Shown here one piece after another: positions 4,921-44,898 of a DNA stretch of 64,000 bases (the stretch's first letter is position 1; the number at the start of each line of letters is the position of its first letter). Below the pieces are notes generated by a model, which was not told the origin of the DNA, searched no databases, and saw only the letters and a list, made by a program, of their open reading frames with translations. The position numbers and the translations under genes were made by a program. Location of the stretch: the NCBI RefSeq assembly GCF_044324785.1, contig NZ_CP172127.1; one strand, 5' to 3'. The stretch comes from Escherichia coli. GTDB taxonomy: Bacteria; Pseudomonadota; Gammaproteobacteria; Enterobacterales; Enterobacteriaceae.

Positions 4921-6198
4921 TTACTTGCTGTTAGCCGTTGCGGGGGTGCTATCAGCAGTACGAATTTTTTGGAACAGCAAAAAGGTAAAGACGATCACCA
5001 TGGCAAGCGCCGCCATGCCCATCAGCCACATATTGCGGTAGGCTTCTGCTGCGGGCAGGGTGTCTTGCCAGTGGCCGATAATTGGGTAAACGAAGACATC
5101 CGGCAGGAATCCAATCACCGAACAAATACCTACCGTGGTGCCCATAATGTAAGACGGTGTTCTTGCTTCGCCAGGGCAGGCCCAGTACAGCCCGCGTGAG
5201 GCGTAACAGGTGAATCCCAGCAGTAAAATCAGGCCAATCCCCATCGCGACCGATTGCGGGTTAGAGTTCGTGACGAGCAGGGCAGTTAACGCCAGCAGGC
5301 CGAGTACGGAAAGGATTTGGATCACGCGGGTAGGGGATTTCACTTTACTGTAGGTGGTAATAATGCCGCCAAGTGGGCCGCACAGCGCGCGGAAGATTTT
5401 GTTGATCACAATCCCCATGTAGCTCGCCGCCACCAGCGACATGCCGTACATTTCGGTCAGATAGTTGGTGGAGTAACTCAGAATGGCGTAGATGGTGAAG
5501 ACGCCAAAAATCACCATGCTGCAATACCAGGTGGTGCTGATACGCAAAACGGCCAGGATGTCGCTAAGCTGGAATGACTGTTTTTCTTCGTTATTGGCAC
5601 TGCGCAGGTTGTTGTTATCGCTAACAAAAAACCAGCACAGAATCCCCAACAAGATGTAAACCACACTGTAGATGATAATGACCGTTTTCAGGCTGGTGCT
5701 GTCATCCGGTGCAAAGCGAGAAAAGACCCACATGGTAAACACCGCCAGCGACATTACACCGACGCCGCGCAGCCCTTCCATCCAGCCCATAATTTTCCCT
5801 TGCTCACTATGATCGCCCAGCAATGAGGCGGCTTTAATCGACACCGACCACAGCATTAAAATCGTCGTTATCGCAAAGGCGATCTGAATACAGAGCATTA
5901 CCCACAGTGGTGGATATGTTGCCATTATCAGGCCCAGCAATCCGGTAATGATCATCGCGGAAGTAATCATTTTGCGGTGTGAAAATTTATCGGCAATAAC
6001 GCCGCTGGGGGCATAAAGAATAATAGCCGCAATACCAAAGGTACTCATTATTAAACCTATCTCGGTATTGCTGAATCCCATAAATTTCGCCATGGGAATT
6101 TGATAAATATAACGTAAATAAGCCAGGTCAAAACTAACGCCGCCGCTAAAACTAATTATCGCGAGGGTTATCCAACGGCGATATGAGTTGTGTTGCAT
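4921..6198 (-). CDS. yqcE: MFS transporter
   Basis: 425-aa ORF, multiple hydrophobic helices; matches E. coli YqcE; 26-bp gap to ygcE suggests an operon. Confidence 0.88.
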   Translation of the reverse strand: MQHNSYRRWITLAIISFSGGVSFDLAYLRYIYQIPMAKFMGFSNTEIGLIMSTFGIAAIILYAPSGVIADKFSHRKMITSAMIITGLLGLIMATYPPLWVMLCIQIAFAITTILMLWSVSIKAASLLGDHSEQGKIMGWMEGLRGVGVMSLAVFTMWVFSRFAPDDSTSLKTVIIIYSVVYILLGILCWFFVSDNNNLRSANNEEKQSFQLSDILAVLRISTTWYCSMVIFGVFTIYAILSYSTNYLTEMYGMSLVAASYMGIVINKIFRALCGPLGGIITTYSKVKSPTRVIQILSVLGLLALTALLVTNSNPQSVAMGIGLILLLGFTCYASRGLYWACPGEARTPSYIMGTTVGICSVIGFLPDVFVYPIIGHWQDTLPAAEAYRNMWLMGMAALAMVIVFTFLLFQKIRTADSTPATANSK

Positions 6199-6222
6199 AT
6201 CGTATTCCCATTTGTAATAGAC

Positions 6223-6270
6223 AAAAAAAAGAGAAAAGTAAGCCGCCCTTTCAGGTGGATTACTTTTCTC
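6223..6270 (-). terminator. Leader hairpin + U-tract (attenuator-like) upstream of yqcE
   Basis: On the minus strand: perfect 11-bp stem GAGAAAAGUAA / UUACUUUUCUC (6270..6231) with 18-nt loop, followed by U8 (6230..6223), about 25 nt before the yqcE start codon at 6198. Confidence 0.55.
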
Positions 6271-6319
6271 AGGTCTCTAGTAATTGCAATAAGAAATAAC
6301 ATGGAAAGCAGTGGTGTTG

Positions 6320-6335
6320 TGTGAGAGTAATCACG
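6320..6335. promoter_or_regulatory. CRP-like site TGTGA-N6-TCACg
   Basis: tgtgagagtaatcacg, 9/10 match to the TGTGA-N6-TCACA core, in the yqcE/ygcW divergent intergenic region. Confidence 0.45.
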
Positions 6336-6376
6336 CTTCTGCTTTTTAAAATTATTTGACAATTCGAATATCACAC

Positions 6377-6392
6377 TGTGATTACGATCACA
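6377..6392. promoter_or_regulatory. CRP-like site TGTGA-N6-TCACA (perfect half-sites)
   Basis: tgtgattacgatcaca; 57 bp from the other CRP-like site; followed by a TATGAT -10-like hexamer at 6408-6413. Confidence 0.55.
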
Positions 6393-6449
6393 TTAGCGAT
6401 TATGCCCTTATGATAAAAATTATCTCCAGTTACCAGAGATAATGAGAAA

Positions 6450-6492
6450 GGTAACTTCCCTCTCGCGGGGGAAGTTACCTTTCTTTTTTTTT
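6450..6492 (+). terminator. Leader hairpin + U-tract (attenuator-like) upstream of ygcW
   Basis: GGTAACTTCC (6450-6459) pairs perfectly with GGAAGTTACC (6470-6479), loop about 9 nt, then TTTCTTTTTTTTT (6480-6492), 25 nt before the ygcW ATG; an upstream hairpin (ttatctc...gagataa, 6420-6446) could form an alternative structure. Confidence 0.6.
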
Positions 6493-6516
6493 GCCTTACG
6501 GAAATTGGAGCTAACT

Positions 6517-7302
6517 ATGTCAATCGAATCTCTCAATGCGTTCTCAATGGATTTTTTCTCCCTGAAAGGTAAAACCGCTATTGTTACCGGCGGGAATAGC
6601 GGTTTAGGCCAGGCATTTGCCATGGCGCTGGCCAAAGCAGGCGCAAATATCTTTATTCCAAGCTTCGTTAAAGATAACGGCGAAACAAAGGAAATGATTG
6701 AAAAACAGGGTGTTGAAGTTGACTTTATGCAGGTGGATATCACCGCAAAAGGCGCGCCGCAGAAGATAATCGCCGCCTGTTGCGAACGTTTCGGTACCGT
6801 CGATATTCTGGTTAACAATGCCGGTATTTGTAAGCTGAATAAGGTGCTGGACTTCGGTCGTGCCGACTGGGATCCAATGATTGATGTGAACCTGACCGCC
6901 GCATTCGAGTTAAGCTATGAAGCTGCAAAAATTATGATCCCGCAGAAAAGCGGTAAAATCATTAATATCTGTTCATTATTCTCTTACTTAGGTGGACAAT
7001 GGTCACCTGCATATTCTGCCACTAAACATGCTCTTGCCGGATTCACCAAAGCTTATTGTGATGAACTAGGTCAATATAATATTCAGGTAAATGGTATTGC
7101 CCCTGGCTATTATGCAACAGATATTACGCTGGCGACACGCAGTAATCCAGAAACCAATCAGCGCGTTCTTGATCATATTCCGGCAAACCGTTGGGGCGAT
7201 ACTCAGGATTTAATGGGCGCAGCCGTATTCCTCGCAAGTCCGGCTTCAAATTATGTTAACGGGCATTTATTAGTGGTCGATGGCGGTTATTTAGTGCGCT
7301 AA
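6517..7302 (+). CDS. ygcW: Short-chain dehydrogenase/reductase (KduD/IdnO-like)
   Basis: 261 aa from MSIESLNAF; TGGNSGLGQA Rossmann glycine motif; matches E. coli YgcW; track ORF begins upstream at 6442. Confidence 0.88.
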   Translation: MSIESLNAFSMDFFSLKGKTAIVTGGNSGLGQAFAMALAKAGANIFIPSFVKDNGETKEMIEKQGVEVDFMQVDITAKGAPQKIIAACCERFGTVDILVNNAGICKLNKVLDFGRADWDPMIDVNLTAAFELSYEAAKIMIPQKSGKIINICSLFSYLGGQWSPAYSATKHALAGFTKAYCDELGQYNIQVNGIAPGYYATDITLATRSNPETNQRVLDHIPANRWGDTQDLMGAAVFLASPASNYVNGHLLVVDGGYLVR

Positions 7303-38397: not shown

Positions 38398-39537
38398 ATG
38401 AGCGCGGGAAGCCCAAAATTCACCGTTCGCCGCATTGCGGCTTTGTCACTGGTTTCGCTATGGCTGGCAGGCTGTTCTGACACTTCAAATCCACCGGCAC
38501 CGGTCAGCTCCGTTAATGGCAATGCGCCTGCAAATACCAATTCTGGTATGTTGATTACGCCGCCGCCGAAAATGGGGACGACGTCTACAGCGCAGCAACC
38601 GCAAATTCAGCCGGTACAGCAGCCACAAATTCAGGCTACTCAACAACCGCAAATCCAGCCAGTACAGCCAGTAGCTCAGCAGCCGGTACAGATGGAAAAC
38701 GGACGCATCGTCTACAACCGTCAGTATGGGAACATTCCGAAAGGCAGTTATAGCGGCAGTACCTATACAGTGAAAAAAGGCGACACACTTTTCTATATCG
38801 CCTGGATTACTGGCAACGATTTCCGTGACCTTGCTCAGCGCAACAATATTCAGGCACCATACGCGCTGAACGTCGGTCAGACCTTACAGGTGGGTAATGC
38901 TTCCGGTACGCCAATCACTGGCGGAAATGCCATTACCCAGGCCGATGCAGCAGAGCAAGGAGTTGTGATCAAGCCTGCACAAAATTCCACCGTTGCTGTT
39001 GCGTCGCAACCGACAATTACGTATTCTGAGTCTTCGGGTGAACAGAGTGCTAACAAAATGTTGCCGAACAACAAGCCAACTGCGACCACGGTCACAGCGC
39101 CTGTAACGGTACCAACAGCAAGCACAACCGAGCCGACTGTCAGCAGTACATCAACCAGTACGCCTATCTCTACCTGGCGCTGGCCGACTGAGGGTAAAGT
39201 GATCGAAACCTTTGGCGCTTCTGAGGGGGGCAACAAGGGGATTGATATCGCAGGCAGCAAAGGACAGGCAATTATCGCGACCGCAGATGGCCGCGTTGTT
39301 TATGCCGGTAACGCGCTGCGCGGCTACGGTAATCTGATTATCATCAAACATAATGATGATTACCTGAGTGCCTACGCCCATAACGACACAATGCTGGTCC
39401 GGGAACAACAAGAAGTGAAGGCGGGGCAAAAAATAGCAACCATGGGTAGCACCGGAACCAGTTCAACACGCTTGCATTTTGAAATTCGTTACAAGGGGAA
39501 ATCCGTAAACCCGCTGCGTTATTTGCCGCAGCGATAA
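38398..39537 (+). CDS. nlpD: Lipoprotein NlpD (LysM + M23 peptidase-like domain)
   Basis: 379 aa; lipobox LAGCS; Gln/Pro-rich repeats; LysM and C-terminal M23-like domain; rpoS promoters expected within this gene. Confidence 0.92.
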
Positions 39538-39599
39538 ATCGGCGGAACCAGGCTTTTGCTTGAATGTTCCGTCAAGGGATCACGGGTAGGAGCCACCTT

Positions 39600-40592
39600 A
39601 TGAGTCAGAATACGCTGAAAGTTCATGATTTAAATGAAGATGCGGAATTTGATGAGAACGGAGTTGAGGTTTTTGACGAAAAGGCCTTAGTAGAAGAGGA
39701 ACCCAGTGATAACGATTTGGCCGAAGAGGAACTGTTATCGCAGGGAGCCACACAGCGTGTGTTGGACGCGACTCAGCTTTACCTTGGTGAGATTGGTTAT
39801 TCACCACTGTTAACGGCCGAAGAAGAAGTTTATTTTGCGCGTCGCGCACTGCGTGGAGATGTTGCCTCCCGCCGCCGGATGATCGAGAGTAACTTGCGTC
39901 TGGTGGTAAAAATTGCCCGCCGTTATGGCAATCGTGGTCTGGCGTTGCTGGACCTTATCGAAGAGGGCAACCTGGGGCTGATCCGCGCGGTTGAGAAGTT
40001 TGACCCGGAACGTGGTTTCCGCTTCTCAACATACGCAACCTGGTGGATTCGCCAGACGATCGAACGGGCGATTATGAACCAAACCCGTACTATTCGTTTG
40101 CCTATTCACATCGTAAAGGAGCTGAACGTTTACCTGCGAACCGCACGCGAGTTGTCCCATAAACTGGACCACGAACCAAGTGCGGAAGAGATCGCAGAGC
40201 AACTGGATAAGCCAGTTGATGACGTCAGCCGTATGCTTCGTCTTAACGAGCGCATTACCTCGGTAGACACCCCGCTAGGTGGTGATTCCGAAAAAGCGTT
40301 GCTGGACATCCTGGCCGATGAAAAAGAGAACGGTCCGGAAGATACCACGCAAGATGACGATATGAAGCAGAGCATCGTCAAATGGCTGTTCGAGCTGAAC
40401 GCCAAACAGCGTGAAGTACTGGCACGTCGATTCGGTTTGCTGGGGTACGAAGCGGCAACACTGGAAGATGTAGGTCGTGAAATTGGCCTCACCCGTGAAC
40501 GTGTTCGCCAGATTCAGGTTGAAGGCCTGCGCCGTTTGCGCGAAATCCTGCAAACGCAGGGGCTGAATATCGAAGCGCTGTTCCGCGAGTAA
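39600..40592 (+). CDS. rpoS: RNA polymerase sigma factor sigma-S
   Basis: 330 aa from [14 protein letters not shown]; full length; codon 33 is GAG (Glu). Confidence 0.97.
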
Positions 40593-40607
40593 GTAAGCAT
40601 CTGTCAG

Positions 40608-40646
40608 AAAGGCCAGTCTCAAGCGAGGCTGGCCTTTTTCTTTTGG
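40608..40646 (+). terminator. rpoS intrinsic terminator
   Basis: aaaggccag...ctggccttt stem followed by tttttcttttgg. Confidence 0.7.
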
Positions 40647-40712
40647 TTGGGGAGTTGGTGTGTTTTGTCGCCTGGATAAGACACGTCAGTGTCCCACCCG
40701 GCAATCAGCATC

Positions 40713-41120
40713 CTATTTGCTCATCATCTTGCGCACCAGTTGCATAAACAGCTCTTGCTCTTCTCCACTCAAACGCCCCAAAAATTCCTCATCCACACTG
40801 TCACCAATCGGTATCGCCGCAGCAAGTACCTTTTCTCCTTCGGCAGTCAGCCAGACAAAGCGACGCCGCTTGTCAGCGGCGTCATGTTCACGTCTGACTA
40901 AGCCACGATTTTCCATTCTTGCCAACATTTCTGCCAGCGTTGCTTTGGTGCTGACGGCTGCTTCCATCAGTGCCACCTGTTCGATACCAGGTTTATCAGC
41001 AATGGCGCGCATCACCGCGTACTGTGGTTTGGTCAGATCAGGTAACTCGTGCTGCCAGCGAGCCGTATGCTGCTGAAAAAGCTGTCGTAACTGATGGAAC
41101 GCTTTATTTCGTAACGCCAT
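40713..41120 (-). CDS. MarR/SlyA-family transcriptional regulator
   Basis: 135-aa ORF; winged-helix MarR-like sequence; divergent from the UbiX/UbiD-type operon. Confidence 0.8.
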   Translation of the reverse strand: MALRNKAFHQLRQLFQQHTARWQHELPDLTKPQYAVMRAIADKPGIEQVALMEAAVSTKATLAEMLARMENRGLVRREHDAADKRRRFVWLTAEGEKVLAAAIPIGDSVDEEFLGRLSGEEQELFMQLVRKMMSK

Positions 41121-41234
41121 GTAAACTCCGGGCTAATTCTCTGTCGCTATCATAGCGGTTTTTCAGTGACGAAGAAGATGTTGTTACTTTTCAATCCTTG
41201 CCGCTGTGGAAATGAAGGAGTATGTTAATAATAA

Positions 41235-41250
41235 TGTTCGTATACGAACA
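41235..41250. promoter_or_regulatory. 16-bp perfect palindrome, candidate MarR-family operator
   Basis: tgttcgtatacgaaca, 16 bp upstream of the UbiX-like gene ATG in the divergent intergenic region. Confidence 0.45.
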
Positions 41251-41266
41251 ATTAAGAGAGTAAGCA

Positions 41267-41860
41267 ATGAAACTGATCGTCGGGATGACAGGGGCTACCG
41301 GTGCGCCTCTTGGTGTGGCATTACTGCAAGCGCTGCGGGAGATGCCGAATGTCGAGACTCATCTGGTGATGTCGAAGTGGGCGAAAACCACTATTGAACT
41401 GGAAACGCCTTACAGCGCTCGCGATGTTGCCGCCCTCGCAGACTTCAGCCATAACCCGGCGGATCAGGCGGCGACTATCTCTTCCGGCTCCTTTCGTACC
41501 GACGGCATGATCGTTATTCCATGCAGTATGAAAACGCTCGCCGGTATCCGCGCTGGTTACGCCGATGGTCTCGTAGGGCGCGCGGCGGACGTCGTGCTCA
41601 AAGAAGGCCGCAAACTGGTGCTGGTGCCGCGTGAAATGCCGCTTAGCACCATCCATCTCGAAAATATGCTCGCACTTTCGCGCATGGGCGTGGCGATGGT
41701 GCCGCCGATGCCTGCCTTTTATAACCATCCCGAAACGGTAGATGACATTGTCCACCATGTGGTAGCCCGCGTGCTGGATCAATTTGGCCTCGAACATCCT
41801 CACGCCAGGCGCTGGCAAGGGTTGCCGCAGGCCCGGAATTTTTCTCAGGAGAATGAATAA
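41267..41860 (+). CDS. UbiX/Pad1-family flavin prenyltransferase
   Basis: 197 aa; MKLIVGMTGATGAPLG flavoprotein N-terminus. Confidence 0.88.
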   Translation: MKLIVGMTGATGAPLGVALLQALREMPNVETHLVMSKWAKTTIELETPYSARDVAALADFSHNPADQAATISSGSFRTDGMIVIPCSMKTLAGIRAGYADGLVGRAADVVLKEGRKLVLVPREMPLSTIHLENMLALSRMGVAMVPPMPAFYNHPETVDDIVHHVVARVLDQFGLEHPHARRWQGLPQARNFSQENE

Positions 41861-43287
41861 TGGCATTTGATGATTTACGCAGCTTTTTACAGGCGCTTGA
41901 TGACCACGGCCAGTTACTGAAAATCAGCGAAGAGGTGAACGCGGAACCGGATCTGGCAGCCGCTGCCAATGCCACCGGGCGTATCGGCGATGGTGCACCG
42001 GCTCTGTGGTTTGACAATATTCGCGGCTTTACCGATGCCCGCGTGGCGATGAATACCATCGGTTCCTGGCAGAACCACGCGATTTCCCTCGGCCTGCCGC
42101 CAAACACCCCGGTTAAAAAACAGATTGATGAGTTTATCCGCCGCTGGGATAACTTCCCCATTACCCCGGAGCGCCGCGCCAATCCAGCCTGGGCGCAGAA
42201 CACCGTCGATGGCGACGAGATCAACCTGTTCGATATTCTGCCACTGTTTCGTTTAAACGACGGTGATGGCGGTTTCTATCTCGACAAAGCCTGCGTAGTT
42301 TCCCGCGATCCGCTCGACCCGGATAACTTCGGCAAGCAGAACGTCGGCATCTACCGCATGGAAGTGAAGGGCAAGCGTAAGCTCGGCCTGCAACCGGTGC
42401 CGATGCACGATATCGCCCTGCATCTGCATAAAGCAGAAGAGCGCGGTGAAGATCTGCCGATTGCCATCACCCTGGGTAACGATCCGATCATCACCCTGAT
42501 GGGGGCCACGCCGCTGAAATACGATCAGTCTGAGTACGAAATGGCGGGCGCGCTGCGCGAAAGCCCGTACCCGATCGCCACCGCCCCGCTGACCAGTTTT
42601 GATGTGCCGTGGGGCTCGGAAGTGATCCTCGAAGGGGTTATCGAAAGTCGTAAACGTGAGATTGAAGGGCCGTTCGGTGAGTTTACCGGCCACTACTCCG
42701 GCGGGCGTAACATGACCGTGGTGCGTATCGATAAAGTCTCTTACCGTACCAAACCGATTTTCGAATCGCTCTATCTTGGTATGCCGTGGACCGAAATCGA
42801 CTACCTGATGGGGCCTGCCACCTGCGTGCCGCTGTATCAACAACTGAAAGCCGAGTTCCCGGAAGTGCAGGCGGTAAACGCCATGTACACCCACGGCCTG
42901 TTGGCGATTATCTCCACCAAAAAACGCTACGGTGGCTTTGCCCGCGCGGTGGGCCTGCGTGCGATGACCACGCCGCACGGTCTGGGCTACGTGAAGATGG
43001 TGATTATGGTCGATGAAGACGTTGATCCGTTCAACCTGCCGCAGGTGATGTGGGCGCTCTCTTCGAAAGTGAACCCGGCAGGGGATTTAGTGCAGTTGCC
43101 GAATATGTCCGTGCTGGAACTCGACCCCGGCTCAAGCCCGGCCGGTATCACCGACAAGCTGATTATCGACGCTACCACGCCTGTCGCCCCGGACAACCGT
43201 GGTCACTACAGCCAGCCGGTGGTGGATTTACCGGAAACCAAAGCCTGGGCTGAAAAACTGACCGCTATGCTGGCCGCACGTCAATAA
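41860..43287 (+). CDS. UbiD-family (prFMN-dependent) aromatic acid decarboxylase
   Basis: 475-aa ORF; start overlaps the UbiX-like gene stop. Confidence 0.88.
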   Translation: MAFDDLRSFLQALDDHGQLLKISEEVNAEPDLAAAANATGRIGDGAPALWFDNIRGFTDARVAMNTIGSWQNHAISLGLPPNTPVKKQIDEFIRRWDNFPITPERRANPAWAQNTVDGDEINLFDILPLFRLNDGDGGFYLDKACVVSRDPLDPDNFGKQNVGIYRMEVKGKRKLGLQPVPMHDIALHLHKAEERGEDLPIAITLGNDPIITLMGATPLKYDQSEYEMAGALRESPYPIATAPLTSFDVPWGSEVILEGVIESRKREIEGPFGEFTGHYSGGRNMTVVRIDKVSYRTKPIFESLYLGMPWTEIDYLMGPATCVPLYQQLKAEFPEVQAVNAMYTHGLLAIISTKKRYGGFARAVGLRAMTTPHGLGYVKMVIMVDEDVDPFNLPQVMWALSSKVNPAGDLVQLPNMSVLELDPGSSPAGITDKLIIDATTPVAPDNRGHYSQPVVDLPETKAWAEKLTAMLAARQ

Positions 43288-43297
43288 GGAGAACAAG

Positions 43298-43534
43298 ATG
43301 ATTTGTCCACGTTGTGCCGATGAACAGATTGAAGTGATGGCGAAATCGCCGGTAAAAGATGTCTGGACGGTCTACCAGTGCCAGCATTGCCTCTATACCT
43401 GGCGCGATACCGAACCGCTGCGCCGCACCAGCCGCGAACATTATCCCGAAGCGTTCCGCATGACGCAGAAAGATATTGATGACGCGCCGATGGTGCCGAG
43501 CATCCCGCCGCTGCTGGCGGTAGATAAGCGTTAA
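43298..43534 (+). CDS. Small zinc-ribbon subunit associated with UbiD-type decarboxylases
   Basis: 78 aa; CPRC...CQHC motif; immediately downstream of the UbiD-like gene. Confidence 0.7.
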   Translation: MICPRCADEQIEVMAKSPVKDVWTVYQCQHCLYTWRDTEPLRRTSREHYPEAFRMTQKDIDDAPMVPSIPPLLAVDKR

Positions 43535-43542
43535 TAAAAAGT

Positions 43543-43574: not shown

Positions 43575-44237
43575 TTACTTTATTTTATAAAATGACAGCC
43601 GCCCGCTTTTCGGCGATCCGGTATCAATATAAATCTGGTTAGCGAACGTCTGAATGTTATCAAACATCATATGTCCAAATATAAAATAATCAGCGCCGTT
43701 TATTTGTTGTAACTCGCCATTAAGCGATTTCTGCACACGATCAACAGGCCAGAGTAATTCTCTCTCCGCTATTTCTTTGCCAAAGAGATATTCATTCCCC
43801 GGATAATCTGCATGTGCGATGACATATTTTATTATGTCGTTAGTGATTTCAATAATATGTGGAAGGTGATGAAATCTCAGCAACAGATCTATTGCTTCTT
43901 GTTGTTCCGTCTCATTTAATTCAAAGAACCAGTCGCCGCCGCTGGCAAGCCACATATTGCCATCGCCGGTCGCGAACGCATCCAACGCCATCGCTTCATG
44001 GTTGCCTTTAACCGATGTAAACCAGGGCTGGTTTAGCAGGCGCAGCACGTTAAGACTCTCCGGCCCACGATCAATATTATCGCCGACAGAAATAAGTAAG
44101 TCGGTTTCAGGGCAAAAAGAGAGTTGATGTAAGCGAGATTGTAATAATTTATAGTCACCATGAATATCACCAACGGCCCATATATGGCGATAGTGATGGG
44201 CATCAATTATTTGATAGCGAGTGGTAGACATTTGCAT
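43575..44237 (-). CDS. pphB: Serine/threonine protein phosphatase 2 (lambda-phosphatase-like)
   Basis: 220 aa; GDIHGD...GDNIDRG...GNHE metallophosphoesterase motifs. Confidence 0.85.
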   Translation of the reverse strand: MQMSTTRYQIIDAHHYRHIWAVGDIHGDYKLLQSRLHQLSFCPETDLLISVGDNIDRGPESLNVLRLLNQPWFTSVKGNHEAMALDAFATGDGNMWLASGGDWFFELNETEQQEAIDLLLRFHHLPHIIEITNDIIKYVIAHADYPGNEYLFGKEIAERELLWPVDRVQKSLNGELQQINGADYFIFGHMMFDNIQTFANQIYIDTGSPKSGRLSFYKIK

Positions 44238-44323
44238 AGACTCAAATTTATATGAATGTATTATTATATCAGACCAGGGTATTGAAGTCTCTGGAGTAAT
44301 AAATTACAAAAGGATGTTTTAAA

Positions 44324-44857
44324 ATGCTGAGATATTTCTATGCTTTCCTGTTAGTTTTTTGTTTTTTCACCTCTAATGTACACGCTGCATCTATAGAAGA
44401 AATAAATCGTTTCGAAAAACTTATAACCGAAGGTGATGTAATTGAGTGTACAGCGCATTTCAGTCAGACGGAGAATAACGAAACATACCAACTTAACCTT
44501 TTGGGAATAATGAAAGTTACTTACTCTGGGGAAAGTGAAAAACGCTACCACTCGACACAATATTATCGTTTAGACGGCTTCAAAATTCCCTTTATCCGTT
44601 ATGAGATGGATATCATCGCTACTCATGAAAAATCGAAGTTAAAAGAAGAGATTGTGCCTGACAGCGTACAGGTATTTTATCCTTCAGCACCAGAGCAAGA
44701 AGCGATATTAGCAGAAGCTGTACGGAAAACCGCACCAATGTCTATTGATAATGACGATATCACATTTACGACATTTCCTGATTACCAGGTGAAAGTGAAA
44801 TCCCCCTCTATGCCAGAAGCGATGACTCAGTATTGCCAGGTGCAAACGAAAAAGTAG
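44324..44857 (+). CDS. Hypothetical secreted protein (signal peptide), low-GC gene
   Basis: 177-aa ORF; N-terminal MLRYFYAFLLVFCFFTSNVHA-AS signal-peptide-like segment; visibly AT-rich; no family recognised. Confidence 0.6.
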   Translation: MLRYFYAFLLVFCFFTSNVHAASIEEINRFEKLITEGDVIECTAHFSQTENNETYQLNLLGIMKVTYSGESEKRYHSTQYYRLDGFKIPFIRYEMDIIATHEKSKLKEEIVPDSVQVFYPSAPEQEAILAEAVRKTAPMSIDNDDITFTTFPDYQVKVKSPSMPEAMTQYCQVQTKK

Positions 44858-44865
44858 TGAATAAA

Positions 44866-44888
44866 CCCGACGGCATTGTGCCGTCGGG
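44866..44888. terminator. Hairpin terminator between the secreted-protein ORF and mutS
   Basis: cccgacggc attgt gccgtcggg; on the minus strand followed by uuuauu. Confidence 0.55.
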
Positions 44889-44898
44889 CATGTCAGGT

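Follow-up and report, generated by a model that had tools for sequence, protein, structure and literature searches.

An intact rpoS gene with glutamate at codon 33 in a 64-kb stretch of non-K-12 Escherichia coli DNA

The gene at 39600..40592 of the stretch of Escherichia coli DNA analysed here, 64,000 nucleotides of contig NZ_CP172127.1 (hereafter, the window), is rpoS; its identity is certain and it is intact. Its codon 33 specifies Glu, the ancestral residue of the species. Sigma-S, the product, is an alternative sigma factor acting on core RNA polymerase, and it drives the general stress and stationary-phase regulon. We conclude with high confidence that the gene is an ordinary chromosomal rpoS of a non-K-12 E. 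coli in its intact wild-type form. The allele is already known, being the ancestral state and the most common one, and brings nothing new on RpoS biology. The features of the gene itself are as follows.

39600..40592, + strand: rpoS coding sequence, encoding sigma-S (sigma-38); 330 sense codons and TAA, translated without an internal stop
39696..39698, + strand: codon 33, GAG (Glu) by direct read; the ancestral, natural-isolate state
39588..39592, + strand: Shine-Dalgarno sequence AGGAG, 7 nt 5′ of the ATG at 39600, read from the sequence

Translation of 39600..40592 ran through 330 residues to the TAA without meeting a stop or a break in the frame, and the original prediction of an intact, full-length rpoS with GAG at 39696-39698 was therefore correct on both counts. 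The product scored 604.6 bits (E = 5e-182) against the NCBIfam RpoS equivalog NF004207, for which the cut-off is 394 bits, and positions 1-329 of the 329 in the profile aligned to residues 1-329 of the 330-aa product. The score against TIGR02394 was 480.7 bits (cut-off, 378.7 bits), and the RpoD, RpoH and other sigma models of NCBIfam all scored under their own cut-offs on this product. Pfam placed Sigma70 regions 1.2 (residues 56-88), 2 (94-163), 3 (174-248) and 4 (262-315) on it without interruption, each over approximately its full profile, which is the group-2 sigma-70 architecture. The best PDB matches were E. coli RpoS chains (e.g., 6KJ6, 5IPL and 6OMF), and the only mismatch in the 6KJ6 alignment was residue 33, where that chain bears the K-12 Gln. 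A chance match is no concern because of the E-value of 5e-182 to the RpoS profile and the identity of the product to RpoS of E. coli N3. Residues I128, K173 and E174 are present and are invariant in eight enterobacterial sequences; we take Lys173 to be involved in promoter selectivity and in recognition by RssB. A hydrophobic residue at position 128 has been reported to be critical for RpoS (PMC5405132).

The ORF scan also returned a longer mechanical frame, 39564..40592 (+) of 342 aa, which begins 12 codons further 5′ with the ATG at 39564; if RpoS were initiated there, the polymorphic residue would be number 45. This is very improbable, since position 1 of the RpoS equivalog profile falls on the Met of 39600, the RpoS chains of solved structures begin at that same Met, and a Shine-Dalgarno sequence comparable to the AGGAG before 39600 is absent 5′ of 39564. 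Moreover, the RefSeq annotation of rpoS is 330 aa in all three of N3, MG1655 and O157:H7. The profile alignment, the Shine-Dalgarno position and these annotations are the reasons for favouring the start at 39600. Slighter still is the probability that the integrity of the gene is an assembly or consensus artefact masking a lesion, or that the culture was a mixture of rpoS+ and rpoS- cells. Mutants of rpoS do build up readily in culture (PMC2700278; PMC3074542) and minority alleles are invisible in a consensus sequence, but the whole gene is gap-free and collinear with both MG1655 and N3, with no sign of a local anomaly.

Alignment with reference rpoS alleles, which had been proposed as a check on the prediction, was gap-free against MG1655 and N3. 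The window rpoS differed from that of MG1655 at 11 nucleotides, 10 of them synonymous, and the sole change in the protein, produced by G at nucleotide 97 (C in MG1655), was E33 where MG1655 has Q33; the N3 protein was identical. Within the public collection, at least 1000 contigs carry the exact window RpoS protein. Residue 33 sits in the acidic N-terminal tail of sigma-S, upstream of conserved region 1.2.

The frequency of codon-33 alleles was determined with a 55-nt query in which the first base of the codon is at position 28, searched against 5426 complete E. coli genomes. Every 28-nt megablast seed in this query spans the first base of codon 33, so that a match requires the queried base. 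The counts were as follows.

First base G (GAG query): 5058 genomes matched, 4832 exactly over the whole 55-mer
First base C (CAG query): 228 genomes matched, 174 with exact CAG and 54 with one further mismatch
First base T (TAG query): 128 genomes matched, 121 exactly

The GAG-type 55-mer was thus present in 5058 of the 5426 genomes (~93%), and the G, C and T counts together account for 5414 of the 5417 genomes with the locus. The G set takes in O157:H7, ST131, O103:H2, derivatives of the B strain, and animal and environmental isolates, while the entries sampled from the C and T sets were almost all K-12 laboratory derivatives (among them MG1655, BW25113, MC4100, W3110, J53, HB101, TG1, S17-1, DH1 and XL1-Blue). 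The claim in the original prediction that codon 33 is polymorphic among laboratory lineages holds for K-12 stocks, as CAG (174 genomes), CTG (54) and TAG (128 of the 5426) occur essentially all in K-12 derivatives (PMC2700278). The CTG allele was read directly in E. coli DH1 (NC_017625.1, 1016281..1016335), where codon 33 encodes Leu, and 53 further complete genomes, including XL1-Blue, matched the CAG query at 98.2%, as did DH1. A failure of the seed logic as the source of these 98.2% matches is ruled out, because DH1 reads CTG with C kept as the first base. Leu33 joins Gln, amber and Glu as a codon-33 variant of K-12 laboratory stocks.

Outside E. coli, Glu33 was also found in RpoS of E. albertii, Leclercia and Klebsiella, and RpoS of Hafnia and Sodalis is shorter by one residue within that acidic stretch. 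Because of the census of 5426 genomes and of Glu33 in the outgroups, Glu33 is the ancestral and species-wide state, and the Gln, Leu and amber variation is a peculiarity of K-12 stocks. This picture agrees with published work (PMC2700278, PMC1852560, PMC3074542).

The DNA downstream of the gene bears on the lineage of the window, and contains the following features.

40713..43540, strand not applicable: variable spacer between rpoS and mutS, O157 'pattern I' type (ORFs, Pfam, NCBIfam, collinearity with N3)
40713..41120, - strand: MarR/SlyA-like regulator (ORF; NCBIfam MarR-family matches)
41267..41860: hydroxyarylic acid decarboxylase subunit B (ORF; Pfam Flavoprotein and UbiD domains for the B/C region)
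41860..43287: decarboxylase subunit C (ORF; the same Pfam domains for the B/C region)

By analogy with the N3 locus, a small decarboxylase subunit D may lie downstream of C. The order after the terminator is the MarR/SlyA-like gene, the decarboxylase subunits, pphB, an ORF of 177 aa and mutS. This order is that of the ygbN-negative 'pattern I' (O157-type) known from the mosaic DNA between mutS and rpoS (PMC4209514). The K-12-like sequence runs out in the T-run of the rpoS terminator (40639..40650), and the terminator therefore forms one boundary of the mosaic segment. Over the 24 kb around rpoS (28-52 kb), N3 was 99.3% identical to the window and the other complete genomes among the matches listed were 97.0-97.6% identical. 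Over 1-19 kb, again among the matches listed, N3 was the best at 97.9%, followed by VCSW5 at 97.2%, and the rest were at approximately 96.5-96.7%. Because N3 came first in each of the two segments and other genomes lie at ~96.5-97.6%, the source is a rare, deep-branching lineage of E. coli. In addition, an 87-nt stretch of rpoS with two window-private SNPs was found in exact form in none of the GTDB species representatives, so that the window does not belong to one of those genomes.

These comparisons decide whether Glu33 might instead be a laboratory pseudo-reversion of the K-12 amber TAG, the window then being a K-12 stock with a repaired rpoS. GAG at codon 33 has indeed been reported in some K-12 stocks (PMC2700278). 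However, the window has neither the K-12 spacer nor near-identity to MG1655: a MarR/decarboxylase spacer replaces ygbI-N, there are 10 synonymous differences from MG1655 in rpoS and 13 in nlpD, and identity to nearly all complete genomes is 96.5-97.6% over 19-24 kb, with N3 the best at 97.9-99.3%. The flanking sequence refutes the pseudo-revertant, which we give almost no credence, and shows the window to be from a non-K-12 E. coli. The framing of the window as a laboratory lineage in the original prediction consequently fails, given this spacer, the ~97% identity of the flanks and the species-wide distribution of GAG. The state of codon 33 is uninformative here, because GAG is ancestral and species-wide and the window is not K-12.

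A segment of approximately 680 bp (44220..44898) in the pphB-mutS interval bears the 177-aa ORF (44324..44857, +), whose hydrophobic N-terminus (MLRYFYAFLLVFCFFTSNVHA) resembles a signal peptide. Searches of the 177-aa ORF against Pfam, NCBIfam and PADLOC gave no matches. The segment was present in 2 of the 5426 complete E. coli genomes (N3 and R32_14_1F), other E. coli having approximately 117 bp at this site in its place. The exact 177-aa protein was found on 228 contigs, and among its relatives the labels 'Escherichia sp. MOD1-EC4550' and 'unclassified Escherichia' occur; a cryptic-clade-like lineage, we infer, would fit these labels. Around mutS, two closely related assemblies (GCA_028598205.1 and GCA_053151395.1) match the window at 99.97-100% identity. 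In both, the 177-aa ORF is interrupted by an IS1 with its 9-bp target duplication (locus 6013..6780; window 44449..44457), whereas the window has no IS1 there. The MutS and NlpD proteins are highly conserved, with exact copies in thousands of blocks of the collection.

Elsewhere in the window, the type I-E gene cas7/casC (25061..26116) has a single in-frame stop at codon 83 (25307..25309), the frame being otherwise open to 26116, and the NCBIfam Cas7/Cse4 model matched the ORF downstream of this stop at profile positions 151-325 only. We regard the gene as a probable pseudogene, in which case Cascade would not function. The cas3, cse1, cse2, cas5, cas6 and cas1 genes look intact. A CRISPR array (28812..29451) separates the cas genes, among which cas2 is assigned by analogy with N3, from iap; it consists of 11 repeats of GTGTTCCCCGCGCCAGCGGGGATAAACCG at 61-nt spacing, the last with one substitution. 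Between cysH and cas3 there is a sok antitoxin RNA (CssrC; Rfam RF01794; 19333..19490, +) scoring 111.7 bits against a gathering threshold of 59, which implies a chromosomal hok/sok-type locus.

The elements in cis that would govern expression of rpoS are as follows.

38398..39537, + strand: nlpD, the upstream gene housing the rpoS promoter and leader (NCBIfam NlpD equivalog, 679 bits)
39033..39599, + strand: putative rpoS 5′ leader, its start set by homology from the K-12 promoter within nlpD
40606..40649, + strand: strong intrinsic terminator of rpoS, with a stem-loop at 40606..40639 (15-bp stem, 4-nt loop) and then a T-run (terminator scan)

The gene lies directly downstream of nlpD with its leader inside nlpD, and the order pcm-nlpD-rpoS is the same in the window, N3, MG1655 and O157:H7. 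The window NlpD protein is identical to that of MG1655, its gene having 13 synonymous nucleotide differences, and the 62-nt spacer between nlpD and rpoS is identical as well. Transcription presumably starts at ~39033, 567 nt 5′ of the ATG, after the K-12 promoter in nlpD. Window and MG1655 diverge at five sites within 650 nt 5′ of the ATG (39171, 39195, 39306, 39417 and 39438; ~99% identity), all synonymous in nlpD, of which those at 39171 and 39195 are window-private changes within the leader. The last 161 nt before the ATG (39439..39599), which we take to hold the inhibitory hairpin and the pairing site for DsrA, RprA and ArcZ, are identical in the window, MG1655, N3 and O157:H7. The terminator stem is common to the window and MG1655. 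A sigma-70 consensus scan of 38900..40750 found no promoter sites; the rpoS promoter is known to be non-consensus, and the consensus model is uninformative for it. At the Rfam gathering threshold, a scan of the whole window covered the rpoS leader with no family and found only the sok/CssrC RNA described above. The local expression elements (the nlpD-embedded leader, Shine-Dalgarno sequence, start codon and terminator) are thus all present in essentially the K-12 form. In N3, nlpD has lost one G from a G-run (window 39223..39230) and is annotated as frameshifted; the run is intact in the window, and the N3 deletion falls inside the rpoS leader region.

The encoded RpoS protein is very probably active, because the same sequence, K-12 RpoS with Q33E, was active in published assays. 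HPII catalase, glycogen level, and survival of H2O2 and cold in a strain with this protein were indistinguishable from K-12 (PMC5405132), and Ferenci et al. described Q33E as of similar functional activity (PMC3074542). Normal amounts of active sigma-S in the source strain would also hinge on trans-acting factors. In the ECOR collection of natural isolates, the RpoS level is very low in ECOR02 and ECOR22 and at its highest in ECOR69, and all three encode the Q33E-only protein (PMC3074542). Since strains with the same protein span the extremes of RpoS level, an intact rpoS is necessary and not sufficient for the general stress response, and alone cannot certify a working one. The statement in the original prediction that the general stress response should be functional therefore stands in part: it holds for the protein, which is active as K-12 with Q33E (PMC5405132), and does not carry over directly to the strain, as the RpoS level of ECOR strains with that protein can be anything from very low to the highest of all (PMC3074542). 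On the present evidence, the general stress response of the source strain is quite likely to be functional.

It is unlikely that the stress response is weak or reset in spite of the intact rpoS, through rssB, hfq, crl, spoT/ppGpp, DsrA/RprA/ArcZ or the Ira anti-adaptors. The contrast of ECOR02 and ECOR22 with ECOR69, and RpoS levels up to 7-fold above that of MG1655 across ECOR strains (PMC3074542), are consistent with such an effect, and the genes identified in the window did not include rssB, hfq, crl, dsrA, rprA, arcZ, the ira genes or spoT. However, the local cis elements all match K-12, natural isolates whose rpoS is intact are mostly RpoS-positive (PMC2700278; PMC3074542), and nothing observed points to a defect of any kind. 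Somewhat less likely again is that the background resets the sigma-S level through the private changes (39171 and 39195; rpoS nucleotides 393, 462 and 678) or through trans-acting factors, the stress response then being markedly unlike that of K-12 despite an effectively identical protein; such a setting, if true, would be another case of the strain-specific RpoS levels known from the ECOR collection. At the level of the gene, nothing stands against the sigma-S-dependent acid, oxidative and starvation resistance. Lesions in rpoS are common, 20-30% of natural isolates being rpoS-defective (PMC3074542) and many laboratory stocks likewise, and the value of a genome without them is one of annotation and quality control only.

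Comparison with known rpoS loci places the window allele as follows. MG1655 RpoS (NP_417221.1), with Gln33 encoded by CAG, is identical to the window at 329 of 330 residues, and NlpD, the nlpD-rpoS spacer, the proximal leader and the terminator stem are likewise identical. MG1655 differs in having ygbI-ygbN at the spacer, which are missing from the window, and the DNA of the two is unrelated from just after the terminator. RpoS of E. coli N3 (WP_000081550.1) is identical to the window at all 330 residues and shares the nlpD synteny, and its rpoS differs from that of the window only by three synonymous changes (nt 393, 462 and 678), which are private to the window. The window protein is also the same as that of the 'Q33E only' alleles of ECOR02, 05, 08, 22, 58 and 69.

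The O157:H7 RpoS (WP_000081565.1) shares Glu33 with the window, whereas it has Gln188 in place of the Lys188 of both the window and K-12, and its locus is 97.8% identical in DNA. Its 'pattern I' spacer has the same layout, a MarR/SlyA-like regulator followed by decarboxylase B and C, but the window has the extra 680-bp segment between pphB and mutS. The K-12 amber allele TAG33 of W3110, J53, HB101, TG1, AG100 and similar stocks, which lowers sigma-S activity (PMC5454202), affects the same codon of the same gene, where the window instead has a sense codon, the ancestral one. Leu33 (CTG) of the DH1 lineage is, in turn, a laboratory-stock variant at the same polymorphic codon as Glu33 of the window.
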